Source: a virus (lineage: Duplodnaviria; Heunggongvirae; Uroviricota; Caudoviricetes). From it: 7,321 nt of DNA. The stretch covers positions 1 through 7,321 of the IMG/VR virus record IMGVR_UViG_2541047691_000019; one strand, written 5' to 3'. The notes under the pieces were generated by a model. The model had not been told where the DNA came from and searched no databases. It saw only the letters and a program-made list of their open reading frames with translations. Of the stretch, positions 1 to 7,321 are shown piece after piece. The position numbers and the translations under genes are program-made. How positions within the stretch are numbered: position 1 is the stretch's first letter; each line of letters opens with the position of its first letter.

Positions 1-2346
1 ATTAAAACGGAACTGCTGGAAACGCAGACCGTGGACTTCAGCGTGGGTGCCGAAGGGCTTCGCCATGTACCGGGCGATGTCATTGAAATCTGCGATGATG
101 ACTATGCCGGTATCAGCACCGGCGGGCGCGTGCTGGCGGTAAACAGCCAGACCCGGACGCTGACGCTCGACCGTGAAATCACGCTGCCATCCTCCGGCAC
201 CACGCTGATAAGCCTGGTTGACGGGCAGGGTAATCCGGTGAGCGTGGAGGTCCAGTCCGTCACCGACGGTGTGAAGGTGAAAGTGAGCCGTGTTCCTGAC
301 GGCGTTGCCGGATACAGCGTGTGGGGGCTGAAGCTGCCGACGCTGCGCCAGCGCCTGTTCCGCTGTGTGAGTATCCGTGAGAATGACGACGGTACGTATG
401 CCATCACCGCCGTACAGCATGTACCGGCAAAAGAGGCCATCGTGGATAACGGGGCGCACTTTGACGGCGACCAGAGCGGCACGGTGAATGGTGTCACGCC
501 GCCAGCGGTGCAGCACCTGACCGCCGAAGTTACCGCAGACAGCGGGGAATATCAGGTGCTGGCGCGCTGGGACACGCCGAAGGTGGTGAAGGGCGTGAGC
601 TTTATGCTTCGCCTGACCGTGGCAGCGGATGACGGCAGTGAGCGGCTGGTCAGCACGGCCCGGACGACGGAAACCACATACCGCTTCACGCAACTGGCGC
701 TGGGGCGGTACACGCTGACAGTCCGGGCAGTAAATGCGTGGGGGCAGCAGGGCGATCCGGCATCGGTATCGTTCCGGATTGCCGCACCGGCAGCGCCGTC
801 TCGGATTGAGCTGACGCCGGGGTATTTTCAGATAACGGCGGTCCCGCGTCTTGCGGTGTATGACCCGACGGTACAGTTTGAATTCTGGTTCTCAGAAAAA
901 CGCATCACGAACACAGCACAGGTGGAAAAATCTGCCCGTTATCTGGGGACCGGCAGTCAGTGGACTGTCCAGGGGAGCCGGATTAAGCCGGGGACGGATT
1001 TCTGGTTTTACGTGCGCAGCGTCAACCTGGTGGGGAAATCTGCTTTTGTGGAAGCCAGCGGGCAGCCCAGCAATGATGGTGAAGGGTATCTGGAAATTTT
1101 CCGGGGGCTGATAGATGAGACGCTTCTGGGTCAGGCACTGAAAGAGCGCATTGATGCTTCAGCGCTGCGTACGGAGGTCACGCAACTGGAAGAAGATATC
1201 CGTCAGCGGATGGACACGGATATCGCAGAAGTGACCCGGAAAATCGGGAAGGCGGAAAACAGCCTCACGCAGCTGGTTGCGAAAAAGAATGAGGACCAGA
1301 CACTGGCCATCGCGCAGGTGAGCCAGAAAGTGGACCGGGTGAGCAGTGAAATCTCACAGACTGTCAGCCAGGGGCAGTCAGAAAACGCCCGACAGATAGC
1401 ACAGGTCCGCCAGTACGTGGATAAAAAAGGGAGTGAAATTACCTCGACCACGGATAAAAAGCTGGGTGACCAGGCCGTGACCATACAGCAAATCCAGCGG
1501 GTTCAGTCAGACACGCGCAATGAGCTGAATGCCATGTATATGCTGAAGGTGCAGAAAACAAAAAACGGTATTCCCTATGTGGCCGGGATTGGCGCGGGGA
1601 TTGAGGATGTTGATGATCAGACCCTGAGTAACATTCTGCTGCAGGCCGATCGCATTGCGATGATTACCCCGGAGAACGGCAACACCACGCCGCTGTTTGT
1701 GGCGCAGGGGAATCAGCTGTTCATGAACGACGTGTTCCTGAAGCGACTGTTTGCGGTGAGCATCACGTCATCCGGCAATCCTCCGACGTTTTCCCTGACG
1801 CCGGATGGCAGGCTGACAGCCCGCAATGCGGATATCAGTGGAGCCATCACGGCGAATACCGGCACGCTCAATAATGTCACCATTAACGAGAACTGTGTCA
1901 TCAGAGGGAAACTGTCTGCAAACCAGATTGAAGGCGATCTCGTTAAAACAGTGGGTAAGGCTTTCCCCCGTGACTCCCGTGCACCGAAGCGTTGGCCATC
2001 AGGAACCATTACCGTCAGGGTTTATGACGATCAGCCGTTTAACCGGCAGATTGTTATTCCGGCGGTGGCTTTCAGCGGTGCCAGACATGAGCGGGAGAAC
2101 AGCGATACTTATTCGTCATGCCGCCTGATAGTGAAGAAAAACGGTGCTGAAATTTATAACCGTACCGCGCTGGATAATACGCTGGTTTACAGTGGTGTTA
2201 TTGATATGCCTGCTGGTCGCGGTCACATGACGCTGGAGTTTTCTGTATCAGCATGGTGGGTAAATGGCTGGTATCCCACAGCAAGTATCAGCGATTTGCT
2301 GGTTGTTGTGATGAAGAAAGCCACTGCAGGCATCACGATTAGCTGA
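1..2346 (+). CDS. J: Host specificity / tail tip protein J, C-terminal ~780 codons (5'-truncated by window edge)
   Basis: Frame is open from base 1 (ATT AAA ACG GAA ...) with no upstream stop, so the gene starts before the window; the ORF track's start at 31 is only the first in-frame GTG. Product has fibronectin-III-like repeats, a long coiled-coil segment ([34 protein letters not shown]...) and a C-terminal domain, and sits directly before lom as in lambda. TGA stop at 2344-2346. Confidence 0.9.
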
Positions 2347-2364
2347 ATTTTATAACCCCAATAC

Positions 2365-2391
2365 GGGCGCCAGAAATGGTGCCTTTTTTAT
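2365..2391 (+). terminator. Candidate intrinsic terminator between J and lom
   Basis: GGCGCC (2366-2371), loop AGAAAT, GGTGCC (2378-2383) gives a 6-bp stem with one G.U pair, followed by TTTTTTATT (2384-2392). Weak stem; tentative. Confidence 0.3.
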
Positions 2392-2413
2392 TGCAGAAAA
2401 GCGAGAGGTAATT

Positions 2414-3013
2414 ATGCGTAAAGTTTGTGCAGTCATTTTGTCCGCAGCCATCTGTCTGTCCGTATCCGGTGCGCCTGCATGGGCGTCTGAACATCAGTCC
2501 ACACTGAGCGCGGGGTATCTTCATGCCCGTACGAACGCTCCCGGCAGCGATAATCTGAACGGGATTAACGTGAAATACCGTTATGAGTTTACGGACGCGC
2601 TGGGGCTGATTACGTCCTTCAGTTATGCCAATGCTGAAGATGAGAAAAAAACGCACTACAGCGATACCCGCTGGCATGAGGATTCTGTGCGTAACCGCTG
2701 GTTCAGCGTGATGGCGGGGCCATCTGTGCGCGTGAATGAATGGTTCAGCGTGTATGTGATCGCTGGTGTGACTTACAGCCGTGTGTCGACTTTTTCCGGG
2801 GATTATCTCCGTGTAACTGACAGCAAGGGGAAAACGCACGATGTGCTGACCGGAAGTGATGACGATCGCCACAGCAACACGTCTCTGGCGTGGGGAGCTG
2901 GCGTGCAGTTTAACCCGACCGAATCCGTGGCCATTGACCTTGCTTATGAAGGTTCCGGCAGTGGTGACTGGCGCACTGACGGTTTCATCGTGGGTGTCGG
3001 TTATAAATTCTGA
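2414..3013 (+). CDS. lom: Lom outer-membrane protein (Ail/Lom/PagC family 8-strand beta-barrel)
   Basis: 199 aa; N-terminal signal peptide MRKVCAVILSAAICLSVSGAPAWA; near-identical over most of its length to lambda Lom as I recall it (…SEHQSTLSAGYLHARTNAPGSDNLNGINVKYRYEF…DWRTDGFIVGVGYKF). RBS GAGAGG at 2403-2408, ATG at 2414. Position J-lom-stf matches lambda. Confidence 0.92.
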   Translation: MRKVCAVILSAAICLSVSGAPAWASEHQSTLSAGYLHARTNAPGSDNLNGINVKYRYEFTDALGLITSFSYANAEDEKKTHYSDTRWHEDSVRNRWFSVMAGPSVRVNEWFSVYVIAGVTYSRVSTFSGDYLRVTDSKGKTHDVLTGSDDDRHSNTSLAWGAGVQFNPTESVAIDLAYEGSGSGDWRTDGFIVGVGYKF

Positions 3014-3039
3014 TTAGCCAGGTAACACAGTGTTATGAC

Positions 3040-3066
3040 AGCCCGCCGGTTCAGGCGGGCTTTTTT
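3040..3066 (+). terminator. Rho-independent terminator downstream of lom
   Basis: AGCCCGCC (3040-3047), loop GGTTCA, GGCGGGCT (3054-3061): a GC-rich 8-bp stem followed by TTTTTT (3061-3066). Confidence 0.7.
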
Positions 3067-3077
3067 GTGGAGTGGAT

Positions 3078-5144
3078 ATGGCAGCAGTAAAAATCTCAGG
3101 TGTGCTGAAAGATGGTGCGGGAAAACCAATACAGAACTGCACTATTCAGTTGAAGGCAAAGCGTAACAGCACCACGGTACTGGTGAACACGGTGGCCTCT
3201 GAAAATCCGGATGAAGCCGGGCGTTACAGCATGGATGTTGAGTATGGCCAGTACAGCGTCATCCTGCTGGTTGAAGGTTTTCCGCCTTCACATGCCGGGA
3301 CCATTACCGTCTATGAAGGTTCCAGACCAGGTACGCTGAATGATTTTCTCGGTGCCATGACGGAGGATGATGTTCGTCCGGAGGCACTGCGCCGTTTTGA
3401 GCTGATGGTGAATGAAGTGGCACGTCATGCCGGAGCGTCATCACAGAGTGCAGCGGCGGCAAAGAAATCCGAAACGGCAGCAGCCTCATCGAAGAATGCG
3501 GCGAAAACCTCAGAAACGAATGCAGCTAACAGCGCACAGGCGGCAGCGGCCTCGCAGACTGCATCGGCAAACTCCGCGACAGCAGCCAAAAAATCAGAAA
3601 CCAACGCGAAAAATAGCGAGACAGCCACAAAGGCCAGCGAAAAAAACGCAAAATCCAGCCAGACGGCAGCGAAAACCAGTGAGACGAATGCCAAAGACAG
3701 TGAAGCCAACGCAAAGGTGAGCGAAACAGCGGCGGCGAACTCGGCGAAAGCATCGGCAGCAAGCCAGACGGCAGCAAAAGCAAGTGAAGATGCTGCCAGA
3801 GAATACGCAAACCAGACAGCAGAGCCGTACAGATATGTTTTACAGCCGCTGCCGGATGTGTGGATACCCTTTAATGATTCGCTGGATATGATTACGGGCT
3901 ATTCTCCGGGTTATAAAAAAGTGAAGATTGGTGATAATGTGGTTCAGGTTGCCAGTGATAAACAGGTTAATTTCAGTCGCGCATCAACGGCAACATATAT
4001 CAACAAATCTGGCGAACTGAAAACGGCGGAAATTAATGAGCCACGATTTGAGTGTGATGGCCTGCTTATTGAGGGGCAAAGAACGAACTTCTTCCCGAAC
4101 AGTACAGACCCTTCGAAGTGGAATAAGTCAACTTCACTGGACGTTACAGAAACAGGCACAGATAGTTTCGGGTTTAATTATGGCCGGTTTGTCGTACAGG
4201 ATTCGATTGTTGGTACAAGTAAAGCGCATACCATTATCGGACTGTATTCGAGTACCGGAGGGGTTGATACTTCAGGGGACGAAAAGTATGTAACTATATC
4301 CTGTCGGGTAAAAAGTGAAGTTGATAATATCGCCGTTCGTATTTTATTTGAACATTATGATGGGGAGGTAAGGACATCAATAGGAGCAGCAAGCCTGAAC
4401 CTTACCACCCGCATAATTAGCAAGACAGGTCAGACAAGCCGTGTTACAGCAAGGTCTGTTAAGGATGATGCAACTGGCTGGATATTTTTTGAGGCTACAT
4501 TAAAAGCAGATACAACAGAAAATACGGTTGGCGGTTTTGTCCAGTATTCTCCGGATACAGGGCAGATGGTTGCATCAGGGGATTATCTCGATGTAACCAC
4601 TCCACAGATTGAGGCTGGTACAGGCGCATCATCTTTTATTGTTACGGGGACGGCACCGGTAACGCGGGCAAGCGATATGGTTACAGTTCCGATTAAGAAT
4701 AATCTTTATAATCTTCCTTTTACGGTTCTTTGTGAGGTACATAAGAACTGGTATAAAACGCCAAATGCAGCGCCGCGTGTTTTTGACACATACCGGCATC
4801 AGGCAGATGCGGGGATCGTAATGGGGTTTGGTTCATCAGGTGGGTACGACGGTTTTCCGTATTGTGATATTGGTGGTTCAAACCGACGAATAAATGAAAA
4901 TGCCGGGCTGAAAAAAATGCTTATTGGTATGCGGGTAAAGTCCGAACGGTCCACATGTGTAGTCAGTAACGGTAAGTTAAGCAGCGAAACTAAAACCAAA
5001 TGGGAATATATCCGGAGTACAGCAACCATTCGCATTGGTGGACAAACTACAGCAGGATTACGCCATTTATTTGGGCATGTGAGGAATTTTCGTCTCTGGC
5101 ATAAAGAGCTAACAGATGCGCAGCTTGGGGAGGTTGTGGAGTGA
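3078..5144 (+). CDS. stf: Side tail fibre protein Stf (lambda Stf-like N-terminus, repeat stalk, divergent distal domain)
   Basis: ATG at 3078 is preferred over the in-frame GTG at 3072 because MAAVKISGVLKDGAGKPIQNCTIQLKAKRNS matches the lambda Stf N-terminus and GGAG lies 5 nt upstream. 688 aa; central Ala/Ser/Thr/Lys repeats (KxSETNAK); conserved block AREYANQTAEPYRYVLQPLPDVWIPFNDSLDMITG…; C-terminus …LRHLFGHVRNFRLWHKELTDAQLGEVVE typical of enterobacterial prophage side tail fibres. TGA at 5142-5144. Confidence 0.88.
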   Translation: MAAVKISGVLKDGAGKPIQNCTIQLKAKRNSTTVLVNTVASENPDEAGRYSMDVEYGQYSVILLVEGFPPSHAGTITVYEGSRPGTLNDFLGAMTEDDVRPEALRRFELMVNEVARHAGASSQSAAAAKKSETAAASSKNAAKTSETNAANSAQAAAASQTASANSATAAKKSETNAKNSETATKASEKNAKSSQTAAKTSETNAKDSEANAKVSETAAANSAKASAASQTAAKASEDAAREYANQTAEPYRYVLQPLPDVWIPFNDSLDMITGYSPGYKKVKIGDNVVQVASDKQVNFSRASTATYINKSGELKTAEINEPRFECDGLLIEGQRTNFFPNSTDPSKWNKSTSLDVTETGTDSFGFNYGRFVVQDSIVGTSKAHTIIGLYSSTGGVDTSGDEKYVTISCRVKSEVDNIAVRILFEHYDGEVRTSIGAASLNLTTRIISKTGQTSRVTARSVKDDATGWIFFEATLKADTTENTVGGFVQYSPDTGQMVASGDYLDVTTPQIEAGTGASSFIVTGTAPVTRASDMVTVPIKNNLYNLPFTVLCEVHKNWYKTPNAAPRVFDTYRHQADAGIVMGFGSSGGYDGFPYCDIGGSNRRINENAGLKKMLIGMRVKSERSTCVVSNGKLSSETKTKWEYIRSTATIRIGGQTTAGLRHLFGHVRNFRLWHKELTDAQLGEVVE
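3438..3813 (+). repeat. Imperfect in-frame tandem repeats encoding the Stf low-complexity stalk
   Basis: Recurrent DNA units such as AAA(A/T)C(A/C)AG(T/C)GA(A/G)AC(G/C)AA(T/C)GC(G/A)AAA encode repeated (A/T)AK(T/K/N)SETNAK motifs. This tract produces spurious highly basic or hydrophobic ORFs in other frames (3412-3720 +, 3425-3709 -, 3526-3810 -). Confidence 0.6.
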
Positions 5145-5419
5145 GAGATTTCACGTTGCGTTTCAGTGATAAAGCAGATTTCAGGGCATTTCTCAGGAAA
5201 CTTAACTGGGAAGAGGACGAAGAGCTGCAGAATGCCGTTCTGGTTGATGAGATTGGTTTTACGTTCAGGGAGACAGATGTTCCTGATGACGGAGAACCAG
5301 AATACACGCGAAACGAAGGGTACTTTGTTAATATCCGTCTTCTTGACGATGGATTTGATGATTCCGTGTTCCGTGAGTGGGTGGTTACACCAGAGCGCCC
5401 GCTCAGGGAGTGGTTTTAA
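5141..5419 (+). CDS. Hypothetical acidic 92-aa protein, translationally coupled to stf (possible cognate fibre chaperone/accessory protein)
   Basis: GTG start at 5141 overlaps the stf stop (GTGA); strong SD GGGGAGG at 5127-5133, 7 nt upstream. Product MRDFTLRFSDKADFRAFLRKLNWEEDEELQ… is acidic with protein-like composition. I do not recognise it as lambda Tfa. Confidence 0.5.
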   Translation: MRDFTLRFSDKADFRAFLRKLNWEEDEELQNAVLVDEIGFTFRETDVPDDGEPEYTRNEGYFVNIRLLDDGFDDSVFREWVVTPERPLREWF

Positions 5420-5428
5420 GGATAGCAG

Positions 5429-5650
5429 ATGGATATCACGTCGATACTTCATGCGCTTTGTGCCGTAGCGGTGCAGGTACTGGCTGGTCTTTTTACCGGA
5501 AACTGGGCTTACGGGGCGATAGCCGGTTGTACGTTCTTCATTGCGCGTGAACACACCCAGGCAGAATATCGCTGGATTGAAATGTTCGGGCATGGCAAGC
5601 GTATGAATATGCCGTGGTGGGGCGTGCCTGCGAATCTGGCTGTTGGTTAA
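5429..5650 (+). CDS. Hypothetical 73-aa small hydrophobic (membrane?) protein
   Basis: ATG at 5429 with SD AAGGA at 5417-5421, 7 nt upstream. Two hydrophobic segments (ITSILHALCAVAVQVLAGLF; WAYGAIAGCTFFIA) then a Trp-rich polar tail. TAA at 5648-5650. No family recognised. Confidence 0.4.
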   Translation: MDITSILHALCAVAVQVLAGLFTGNWAYGAIAGCTFFIAREHTQAEYRWIEMFGHGKRMNMPWWGVPANLAVG

Positions 5651-5669
5651 TCGTGGGTGAAAAAGGTGA

Positions 5670-5798
5670 GCAGTATATGCAACGAAGGAGGAAACATCAT
5701 TGCTGGCGGCATGGAAGGCATGCAGGGTGTTGCTGAACCGTGTTGATACATCAACTGCACCTGATATTGAGTGGCCGGAAGAACCAGACACAATGTAA
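5670..5798 (+). pseudogene. tfa: Tail fibre assembly protein Tfa, C-terminal remnant (about 42 codons; N-terminal ~150 codons absent)
   Basis: Frame 0 after the TGA at 5667-5669 encodes [42 protein letters not shown], matching the conserved C-terminus of lambda Tfa as I recall it (…[32 protein letters not shown]…). No ATG start and no N-terminal domain. Confidence 0.65.
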
Positions 5799-5801
5799 GC
5801 G

Positions 5802-5847
5802 AAAAAGAAAAACCGCAGACACGACGTATGCAGGACGTGCTGCGGTT
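5802..5847 (-). terminator. Rho-independent terminator for the leftward int-dinI transcript
   Basis: On the + strand, AACCGCAG (5811-5818) pairs with CTGCGGTT (5840-5847), with an extended imperfect stem (ACACG/ACGTG). The A-run AAAAAGAAAAA at 5802-5812 reads as U-rich 3' of the hairpin on the - strand. About 65 nt downstream of the dinI-like stop. Confidence 0.55.
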
Positions 5848-5913
5848 GGCTGGTGAACTTTCGATAGTGCGGGTATTGAATGATTTCCAGCCGTTACCGA
5901 TTTTACGTGTTTA

Positions 5914-6162
5914 TTAGTGAACAAACCACTCGTCAGCAGACTCCCAGGTATCTTTCAGAGTCTCCTGAACAAATGTTTTTGCAGAATCCTTATCTGCTGT
6001 GCGTGTAACAGAAAGCCCATCATTGCTGGTGGCTTTTACGATCACTTCTACATCGTCATAACGCTTACTGATGCGCCGAGTTAATTCTTCCTTTAACGCA
6101 TCCACAGCACCGTTTGGCATTTTAGTCATTTTCTCTTTGGCTATGCAGATTTCAATACGCAT
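5914..6162 (-). CDS. dinI: DinI family protein (DNA-damage-inducible protein I homologue; modulator of RecA coprotease activity)
   Basis: 82 aa, [35 protein letters not shown]…[15 protein letters not shown], matching E. coli DinI in length and in the MRIE…GA(I/V)DAL…(E)TWESAD(D/E)WFV motifs. RBS GAGGGA upstream; LexA-box promoter immediately upstream. Confidence 0.88.
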
Positions 6163-6175
6163 AAAAATCCCTCTA

Positions 6176-6195
6176 TACTGTGTTTGTATACAGTG
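6176..6195 (-). promoter_or_regulatory. LexA operator (SOS box) 1, proximal to the dinI-like start
   Basis: TACTGTGTTTGTATACAGTG: perfect CTGT-N8-ACAG (6178-6193) with an AT-rich spacer, against consensus TACTGTATATATATACAGTA. Lies between the putative -10 and the RBS. Confidence 0.75.
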
Positions 6196-6197
6196 TT

Positions 6198-6227
6198 ATT
6201 TTTATCTGTATAAATAAACAGTGTCAA
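6198..6227 (-). promoter_or_regulatory. Sigma-70 promoter for the dinI-like gene
   Basis: On the - strand: TTGACA (complement of 6222-6227, a perfect -35 that overlaps the int stop codon at 6224-6226), a 17-18 bp spacer, then TAAAAAT (complement of 6198-6204) as the -10. Start codon is about 35 nt downstream. Confidence 0.6.
6204..6223 (-). promoter_or_regulatory. LexA operator (SOS box) 2, within the promoter spacer
   Basis: ATCTGTATAAATAAACAGTG: perfect CTGT-N8-ACAG at 6206-6221. Sits between the -35 and -10 elements of the dinI-like promoter. Confidence 0.7.
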
Positions 6228-7321
6228 GAGGTCTTGTTTCTGCTCTTTTGGAGTTCTTCAAAACGATTATGTAAAGATTTCGGATACAGTTCGGTATATA
6301 CCTGCCATAGCACGTTTAATGAACGATGCCCTGTAACTTGAGCGACTTCCTCAATACTAAAACCAGCCTCAAATAAGCGACTTGCCCCTTCTCTACGCAA
6401 ATCATGGTATCGCAGATCTTTAATACCTAATTTGCTTCTTACCCTCTGAAATCCTGCGGTAACAGAAGTGCTGTTATATGGAAAAATGAATTCTGATTTT
6501 TTGGGTTGGCGCTGGACGATATCCCAGGCTTCCCCAAGCAAGGCAACTTTCATATGGTTACCTTCCTTTTTACGTGGATCTTTCCTATCTCTTACTAGTA
6601 TAGATTTTTGTTCTTGGTCGAGATCTTCCCATCGTAACCGGCATACTTCTCCGATTCGCATACAGGACCACACAGAAAATTTGAGGATATCAACGAACGG
6701 AATTTTTGAGCATTTATGAGTAGATCGTTGTTGAAGGCCTTCAATGAGCATGTCCAGTTCATCAGATGCTGGTCTACGATTACGACGGTTTGATTTACCA
6801 ATCAAACCGAGTTTAAGTAGATATGGACGAGCGCTTTTCGCCGGGTTTGATGTGTAATTGATTCCGTATACAGGTTTTGCCGCATCCAGAACACTGCCAA
6901 GATAACTAACATCGTGGCTGACTGTTGCTGGGCCTGCACCAGCGTTGTTTCTTAGCCTGCAATGTTCAATTACGTCATTTTCTGTCAGTTCAGATAGTTT
7001 GATCGCGGATATGTCACTATCCATAAGCAGTTCCAGCACATATCTTTTAGTACGGCCTGCTTTACCTCCGGCATTTGGGTCATTTAAATATTTGTGTAGT
7101 AAGTCACGGACTGTAAGTCCATCAACAGCATTTGATGATGGAATGCCATATAGATCTAATTCCATCACTTTCTGTGCGCCCCATGTTTTGGCATGAGCAT
7201 GTTTAGGGAATGTTTTGCTTTCCCTGTAAGTGATAACACCTTTTTCTTTGATAATCACATTACAGCGATAGCGTGGTGTGCCATCGGATTTTAGTCGTTT
7301 CTCTATGTTATAGTACGCCAT
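6224..7321 (-). CDS. int: Phage integrase, tyrosine site-specific recombinase
   Basis: 365 aa. C-terminal catalytic-domain motifs: Arg in …CMRIGEVCRLRWEDLD…, HDLRREGASRLF (H-x-x-R) and a Tyr near the C-terminus (…GHRSLNVLWQVYTELY). Start codon is the final 3 bases of the window (complement of 7319-7321), so an upstream extension cannot be excluded. AT-rich relative to J and lom. Confidence 0.88.
   Translation of the reverse strand: MAYYNIEKRLKSDGTPRYRCNVIIKEKGVITYRESKTFPKHAHAKTWGAQKVMELDLYGIPSSNAVDGLTVRDLLHKYLNDPNAGGKAGRTKRYVLELLMDSDISAIKLSELTENDVIEHCRLRNNAGAGPATVSHDVSYLGSVLDAAKPVYGINYTSNPAKSARPYLLKLGLIGKSNRRNRRPASDELDMLIEGLQQRSTHKCSKIPFVDILKFSVWSCMRIGEVCRLRWEDLDQEQKSILVRDRKDPRKKEGNHMKVALLGEAWDIVQRQPKKSEFIFPYNSTSVTAGFQRVRSKLGIKDLRYHDLRREGASRLFEAGFSIEEVAQVTGHRSLNVLWQVYTELYPKSLHNRFEELQKSRNKTS

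Follow-up and report, generated by a model that had tools for sequence, protein, structure and literature searches.

Genomic context of the dinI-like gene

The window analyzed herein is a stretch of 7321 bp of viral DNA, which, as assessed from the ORF list and a Pfam search, forms the right-hand end of a lambdoid prophage of E. coli. A dinI-like gene, together with its promoter and terminator (hereafter, the cassette), lies between the tail-fiber region and the integrase gene. The features of the locus are listed in Table 1.

The window was 99.8% identical to a prophage of E. coli PMV-1 across positions 1–4051 and 5616–7321, and the PMV-1 annotation places the host gene dusA next to the start of the integrase gene. 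Positions 4051–5616, which hold the C-terminal part of the tail fiber and the two small ORFs, were ~92% identical to PMV-1 or unmatched, and this pattern reads as local mosaicism at the receptor-binding end of the side tail fiber. An Rfam search returned a sub-threshold match to IS009 at 5658–5755 on the plus strand (47 bits vs. a gathering score of 117). According to the PMV-1 annotation, the match falls in the C-terminal fragment of the tail fiber assembly gene, and the likely cause is that this Rfam family contains sequence of prophage origin, with no RNA gene here. The match is unrelated to the promoter and was rejected.

Table 1. Features of the window and of the dinI-like cassette (HI, heterology index)
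Feature	Position	Strand	Basis and remarks
Tail-tip protein J, C-terminal part	31–2346	plus	ORF list, Pfam
lom	2414–3013		ORF list, Pfam
Side tail fiber gene	3072–5144		ORF list, Pfam
Two small ORFs, then tail-fiber-assembly gene remnant			3' of the side tail fiber gene
Intrinsic terminator	5802..5847	minus	Stem-loop 5811–5847, then U-run UUUUUCUUUUU; right cassette boundary
Conserved 3'UTR hairpin (GGCUGG...CCAGCC)	5848..5892	minus	RNA fold; conserved across six phages
dinI-like gene	5914..6162	minus	82 aa, predicted RecA-filament-binding; Pfam PF06183
Shine-Dalgarno GAGGG	6169..6173	minus	6 nt before ATG; kept in homologues
LexA box 2 (proximal), predicted	6176..6195		20-mer TACTGTGTTTGTATACAGTG; core 6178–6193; HI 7.54
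-10 region TAAAAAT	6198..6204	minus	Promoter scan, mEp460 annotation
LexA box 1 (distal), predicted	6204..6223		20-mer ATCTGTATAAATAAACAGTG; core CTGT-N8-ACAG 6206–6221; HI 8.46
-35 hexamer TTGACA	6222..6227	minus	6/6 matches; sequence, promoter scan; annotated as promoter in mEp460 (JQ182728); left cassette boundary
Tyrosine integrase	6224–7321	minus	Pfam Phage_integrase; upstream context, outside the cassette

Two predicted LexA boxes bracket the -10 region of the dinI promoter

Read on the minus strand from position 6240 downward, the sequence ahead of the dinI-like gene is ctcTTGACA-CTGTTTATTTATACAG-A-TAAAAA-TAACA-CTGTATACAAACACAG-tataGAGGGatttttATG. A consensus scan gave 10 of 12 matches, in agreement with the near-consensus promoter with a perfect -35 that an initial annotation had described. 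The -10 is weak (4/6 matches), and two registers that differ by 1 nt are possible; it can be read as TAAAAA (6204..6199) after a 17-bp spacer or as AAAAAT after an 18-bp spacer, both within the 16–18 bp of sigma-70 promoters.

The initial annotation had placed one LexA box in the spacer and the other just past the -10, 28 bp apart, and this layout was confirmed. The core of box 1, CTGTTTATTTATACAG (6221..6206), takes 16 of the 17 spacer bases between the -35 and the -10. The core of box 2, CTGTATACAAACACAG (6193..6178), begins 5 nt after the -10, ends 15 nt ahead of the ATG at 6162, and covers the predicted transcription start. Both boxes overlap or abut core promoter elements, and together they bracket the -10 of the sole good promoter that the scan found upstream of the dinI-like gene. 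The distance of 28 bp, whether start to start or center to center, corresponds to ~2.7 helical turns, and face-to-face cooperative binding is thus not suggested. The CTGT-N8-ACAG motif occurs twice in the 7321-bp window, both times here, where 0.10 occurrences were expected, and none of 200 shuffled windows held two or more.

The integrase stop codon TGA (6226..6224) falls inside the -35 hexamer (6227..6222), as had also been pointed out. The promoter also occurs behind no fewer than five other upstream neighbors, and the overlap is a by-product of the recombination junction, with no regulatory coupling. As no terminator separates int from the promoter, some LexA-independent transcription might arise from int read-through.

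Strength and conservation of the predicted operators

An HI matrix was derived from 140 E. coli K-12 sequences with published HI values (supplement of PMC12527982), which a linear model fitted exactly (rmse 1e-5). The recovered matrix returned the established values for umuDC (2.77), recA (4.31), sulA (4.65), and K-12 dinI (6.24). In the K-12 data set, the boundary between binders and non-binders lies between 13.6 and 13.9, and the low-HI cluster ends at 13.60. Scoring both boxes with a LexA matrix had been proposed as a check, and with HI values of 7.54 (proximal) and 8.46 (distal) both fell inside the LexA-binding range, while the best of the remaining CTG-N10-CAG sites scored 18.1 across the window. 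In the K-12 table, both boxes rank between uvrA/ssb (6.98) and ruvAB (9.19), and neither is as strong as the lone box of chromosomal dinI. The description of the motifs as perfect therefore holds for the CTGT/ACAG arms but not for the 20-mers, which are of medium strength. As judged from these scores, both boxes are credible mid-strength LexA operators, and it is plausible that the dual operator confers tighter repression than that at chromosomal dinI.

The last two bases of the -35 (6222–6223) double as positions 1–2 of the LexA 20-mer of box 1, and box 1 is penalized in its HI for being flanked by the CA of this hexamer. In variants with TTGATA, the -35 is worse but box 1 improves (HI 4.9–5.5 vs. 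7.2–8.5). A trade-off between the strengths of the promoter and of the operator is thus built into the shared bases.

Both boxes were kept in all 60 IMG/VR loci with enough upstream sequence, which comprised 21 promoter variants with HI values of 2.9–11.4. In the 20 variants that had the modal length, all 16 positions of the CTGT/ACAG arms were invariant, whereas 15 of the 52 other positions varied; by hand estimate, the hypergeometric probability of this split is ~0.01.

Considering that the box region is AT-rich (34% GC) and adjoins int, and that an att repeat lies ~200 bp away in some phages, the palindromes might be chance AT-rich repeats, or attachment-region sites for integrase, Xis, or IHF without a role for LexA. 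We regard this as barely credible. Two palindromes were observed against an expectation of 0.10, their arms are invariant while the inner bases vary, and the 20-mers fit the LexA matrix beyond being mere palindromes. Moreover, the boxes travel with the dinI gene beside unrelated integrases and att sites, and the host junction in PMV-1 lies on the opposite side of int.

Predicted product of the dinI-like gene

The assignment of the gene to dinI was well founded. The product matched Pfam PF06183 with 70.8 bits (cut-off 24.2; 1.2e-19) over profile positions 1–63 of 63, matched the DinI structures 1GHH/7YWA in the PDB (E 7.9e-13), and was 46% identical to K-12 DinI in the alignment. [quoted passage not shown] The pocket residues align with M15, L23, W73, W79, and F80 of the phage product, and those of the acidic patch with E26, D71, and E78. 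All eight RecA-contact positions are thus identical or conservatively replaced, and the product is a bona fide member of the DinI family.

Downstream end and limits of the cassette

[quoted passage not shown] In phage PhiR40_1, changes in the terminator stem preserve pairing, as seen in the comparative alignment. A simple terminator scan of positions 5400–6400 returned none; it was discounted, as RNA folding and the comparative alignment had found one.

Phage morons are promoter-gene-terminator insertions in lambdoid phages, a concept from HK97 and HK022. Like them, the cassette brings its own promoter and terminator, is poorer in GC (34–42%) than the tail-fiber flank (about 50%), sits between conserved phage modules, and has varying flanks. 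Its limits coincide with those of shared sequence. The homology with the cdtI, 2H10, and Stx2c phages, which have a different neighbor, starts exactly at the -35 TTGACA, at least five upstream contexts of the promoter occur, and homology among phages stops just past the T-run, ~100 nt after the dinI stop codon (BLAST ends at 5807–5813). We therefore consider it likely, at roughly 85%, that positions 5802–6227 are a self-contained and horizontally mobile unit of promoter, operators, dinI, 3'UTR, and terminator, that is, a moron of a lambdoid E. coli prophage. A typical moron is constitutive in the lysogen, whereas expression of this cassette is predicted to be tied to the host SOS signal.

A dinI-like fossil was observed on the E. 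coli chromosome, in the ykgJ-ecpE intergenic region right after the ecpE stop codon, where it matches window positions 5825–6091. It is present in 5201 of 5426 E. coli genomes, including MG1655, and is unannotated. Over 248 positions (3001–3248 of the examined stretch), identity was 85% for the 3' part with the 3'UTR and 73% for the 5' part. The terminator hairpin of the fossil has been preserved through changes on both sides of the stem, and it may now terminate the ecp operon.

The conserved 3' end raises the question of whether the key product is an RNA, instead of or besides the protein, with the ~100-nt 3'UTR acting as an SOS-induced small RNA. [quoted passage not shown] The two stable hairpins of the 3'UTR, its conservation, which in six phages extends through the terminator, and its persistence in the chromosomal fossil would fit such a role. 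However, the Rfam search of the 3'UTR gave no family match, the DinR seed falls in a Klebsiella-specific stretch (PMC10907235), and the conservation of the fossil is equally explained by reuse as a terminator after ecpE. The intact coding sequence and the retention of all RecA-contact residues indicate that the protein is under selection. An RNA as the key product is therefore improbable, and the DinI-like protein is preferred.

Comparison with known LexA-controlled dinI genes

The dinI homologues of the Gifsy prophages of Salmonella have a LexA-dependent, mitomycin-inducible promoter, as demonstrated by experiment (Lemire et al. 2011, PMC3121763), and respond to nalidixic acid with a 4.6- to 23-fold induction (PMC8072944). 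In both Gifsy and the cassette, a TTGACA promoter with a LexA box immediately precedes a prophage gene of the DinI family, and such genes are widespread in enterobacterial prophages; in Gifsy, SOS induction has been shown by experiment. The two differ in several respects. Gifsy DinI belongs to a different subfamily, which starts with MFVELVYDKRN. Gifsy-2 has one strong proximal box (HI 2.94) in place of two mid-strength boxes, and in the dual promoters of the Gifsy type, the boxes are 24 bp apart from center to center instead of 28 bp. The Gifsy repressors are uncleaved, whereas a repressor of the CI/S24 type is encoded by the PMV-1 prophage, the relative of the one studied here.

The dinI genes of Gifsy-1, -2, and -3 each head a LexA-controlled operon in which an antirepressor gene and irsA follow (dinI-gfoA/gftA-irsA), and the small antirepressor after dinI triggers induction (PMC3121763). 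An induction module of this kind could be imagined here, given that a 57-aa ORF with a TTG start (5751–5924) overlaps the dinI stop codon. This is very unlikely. The cassette dinI is monocistronic with its own terminator; the ORF has no Pfam match and is not conserved, as the homology among carriers ends after the terminator; and the self-cleaving CI/S24-type repressor of the PMV-1 prophage makes an antirepressor unneeded. The ORF was hence rejected as an antirepressor gene, and we retain the reading as a single-gene moron.

The dinL gene of phi80 (GenBank JX871397) carries the annotation "predicted LexA binding site". Like the prophage studied here, phi80 is a lambdoid coliphage in which the tail-fiber genes and attP enclose a gene of the DinI family. 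Its box, CTGTATAAATAAACAG, lies in the spacer right after TTGACA, and the 16-mer is identical to that of box 1. phi80 dinL differs in having a single stronger box (HI 4.68) without a proximal box, a better -10 (TATAAA), and a product of another DinI subfamily. Together with the HI values, the position of the boxes, and their invariant arms, the Gifsy and phi80 precedents support the view of the initial annotation that this is a LexA-repressed promoter.

Chromosomal dinI of K-12 likewise has a LexA-repressed sigma-70 promoter, is monocistronic, and ends at an intrinsic terminator, LexA control of the cassette being predicted. Its promoter also lies near the stop codon of the preceding gene, within a few tens of nt, and the RecA-contact residues are kept. 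In K-12, one box (HI 6.24) overlaps the -10 and the -35 is an imperfect TTGTCA, whereas in the cassette a box lies on either side of the -10 and the -35 is a perfect TTGACA. Two or more LexA boxes within or adjoining the core promoter are also found in lexA, recN, colicin genes, and Salmonella dinI. The boxes of Salmonella chromosomal dinI lie 19 and 42 nt from the ATG (PMC8072944), compared with 15 and 43 nt in the cassette.

Two earlier studies touch on genes of this kind. A dinI-like gene of CFT073 behaved like the SOS genes in a transcriptome study, where it decreased along with sulA, umuD, and recN after evolution toward low SOS expression (PMC2817434), and a comparative study flagged a prophage DinI-like gene in relation to the evolution of quinolone resistance (PMC10575684). 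In the literature searched, no experimental study of the E. coli cassette or its dual operator was found; the O157 literature on dinI deals with the chromosomal gene or leaves the repeated prophage genes unresolved, with nothing on the cassette.

Distribution of the cassette and of the dual-operator layout

The dinI region matched more than 200 phage records, including mEp460, PhiR40_1, cdtI, 2H10, and many Stx phages. In the mEp460 record, the promoter is annotated but the LexA boxes are not. The cassette (at least 80% covered) was present in 1408 of 5426 complete E. coli genomes (~26%), with up to nine matching places per genome, and it also occurred in prophages carrying Stx, Cdt, and pertussis-like toxins.

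One genome per bacterial species was then scanned for the architecture of TTGACA, a box, 8–16 nt, and a second box. The scan returned 29 loci, mostly ahead of DinI-family genes. A gap of 12 nt between the boxes characterized the DinI subfamily of the cassette (E. coli, Shigella, and a Wohlfahrtiimonas MAG), and a gap of 8 nt the Gifsy-type subfamily (Enterobacter, Citrobacter, Klebsiella, and others), while the -10 motif TAAAAAT was conserved in the promoters of both. The remaining loci were ahead of UmuD-like (Pasteurellaceae), LexA-like, and other SOS-type proteins, identified by eye. In Mannheimia, Glaesserella, Muribacter, Ursidibacter, and others, the order TTGACA-box-(-10)-box was observed before a ~126-aa protein that is UmuD-like or S24-like by eye. 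The dual-operator layout is thus a recurrent SOS promoter design beyond the Enterobacteriaceae.

Among 62 sampled Gifsy-type DinI loci in viral contigs, 48 had one predicted box, 9 had two, and 5 had none; in this small sample, single boxes tended to be strong and paired boxes moderate. Predicted LexA control of phage dinI genes is accordingly the rule, and the dual operator is a fixed design in the subfamily of the cassette and a minority design elsewhere. Taken together, the element is best described as an ordinary, widespread, putatively LexA-repressed DinI moron of lambdoid prophages, of a class that is already recognized. What appears specific to it is the pair of mid-strength boxes flanking the -10 in a monocistronic unit without a Gifsy-type antirepressor.

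Proposed mechanism and its meaning

Judging from the sequence, the scores, and the homologous systems, dimers of host LexA would sit on both operators in an undamaged lysogen and block RNA polymerase. With box 1 in the spacer and box 2 over the start, either box should exclude the polymerase, and the promoter would fire only when both are vacant. Upon DNA damage, RecA∗ would promote self-cleavage of LexA and free the promoter, and the boxes should clear early because both are of medium affinity. The strong -35 would then give a burst of monocistronic dinI mRNA, and the 82-aa product, with its conserved hydrophobic pocket and acidic patch, would bind the groove of the RecA∗ filament. We infer these steps, that is, LexA occupancy, release on damage, dinI mRNA, and RecA∗ binding, and both the sequence and the homologous systems support them well.

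What follows for induction is less certain. The PMV-1 prophage repressor is a 230-aa protein with HTH and Peptidase_S24 domains in Pfam, and thus of the RecA-cleavable CI type. The RecA groove also serves LexA, UmuD, and lambda CI, and extra DinI would stabilize filaments and compete with the CI-type (S24) repressor and UmuD. Prophage DinI, from one or several copies, might in this way raise or delay the threshold for induction and mutagenesis, a tentative expectation to which we give somewhat less than even odds. DinI acts in a concentration-dependent manner, stabilizing filaments at low dose and inhibiting them at high dose, and the direction of its effect on induction is uncertain for this reason. 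In Gifsy-1 and Gifsy-3, non-polar dinI deletions caused no significant change in the level or rate of induction (PMC3121763), but the Gifsy phages do not rely on repressor cleavage. If prophage DinI alters the rate at which RecA∗ cleaves CI-type repressors or UmuD, copy number would affect the induction of toxin phages by antibiotics and SOS mutagenesis. The logic of LexA box, DinI, and prophage is established, and the cassette offers a well-defined and easily tested example of it, with no new principle.

A phage-encoded LexA-domain protein

The nin region of the PMV-1 prophage, outside the window, encodes a 108-aa protein between dam methylase and rusA (17997–18323, plus strand). It consists of the LexA DNA-binding domain only, without a cleavage site or an S24 domain, and is possibly a non-cleavable LexA mimic. 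Carriers include the close relatives PMV-1, mEp460, PhiR40_1, cdtI, 2H10, Stx2c phages, and SKA5; the protein occurs in 61 phage records, and the dinI cassette is present in many of these as well. No functional study of this protein was found in the literature searched.

The boxes might be mainly, or also, operators for this protein, which could recognize the CTGT half-sites as well; the phage would then have its own control over dinI, and perhaps over SOS genes of the host, that cleavage cannot lift. The protein matches LexA_DNA_bind in Pfam (2.9e-19), is 43% identical to residues 1–86 of host LexA, and has a nearly identical recognition helix (RSVNAAVEHL vs. RSPNAAEEHL). Among the matches listed, 13 of 25 phages with the dinI cassette are also among the 30 carriers of the protein. 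Nevertheless, we consider this reading unlikely. LexA dimerizes through the C-terminal domain, which the 108-aa protein lacks, and its gene lies outside the window. Co-occurrence is not obligate, since Stx2a and Stx1a phages match the cassette region and are not among the carriers listed, and SfV, SfII, and SfIV have the protein and are not among the cassette matches listed. The overlap between the two sets can also be explained by the shared ancestry of lambdoid coliphages. Host LexA is accordingly retained as the presumed repressor of the cassette.

A more elaborate possibility is a phage circuit that manipulates the SOS response, in which dinI is silenced by LexA, an early pulse of DinI from the mid-affinity dual operator after DNA damage sets the induction threshold by competing with the CI-type repressor and UmuD for the RecA groove, and the uncleavable LexA-domain protein ends the response. 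Once the lytic genes are on, the nin-region protein would re-occupy these boxes and the host SOS boxes; a dose effect would be expected in strains with up to nine copies of the cassette; and, as a further option, an SOS-induced small RNA might be cut from the conserved 3'UTR. Such a circuit is quite unlikely.

Further observations were made in PMV-1. The far end of the prophage is ~3 kb from the host lexA-dinF operon, and the LexA-controlled cassette is ~42 kb from lexA, the gene of its presumed repressor; this proximity is most likely a coincidence of the position of dusA. Downstream (3') of the antiterminator Q gene, the PMV-1 prophage (21238–22412) encodes a subtilase-family AB5 toxin B subunit and a scabin-related ADP-ribosyltransferase, in the place where Stx phages have stx. 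These genes are probably the pertussis-like toxin locus of E. coli.
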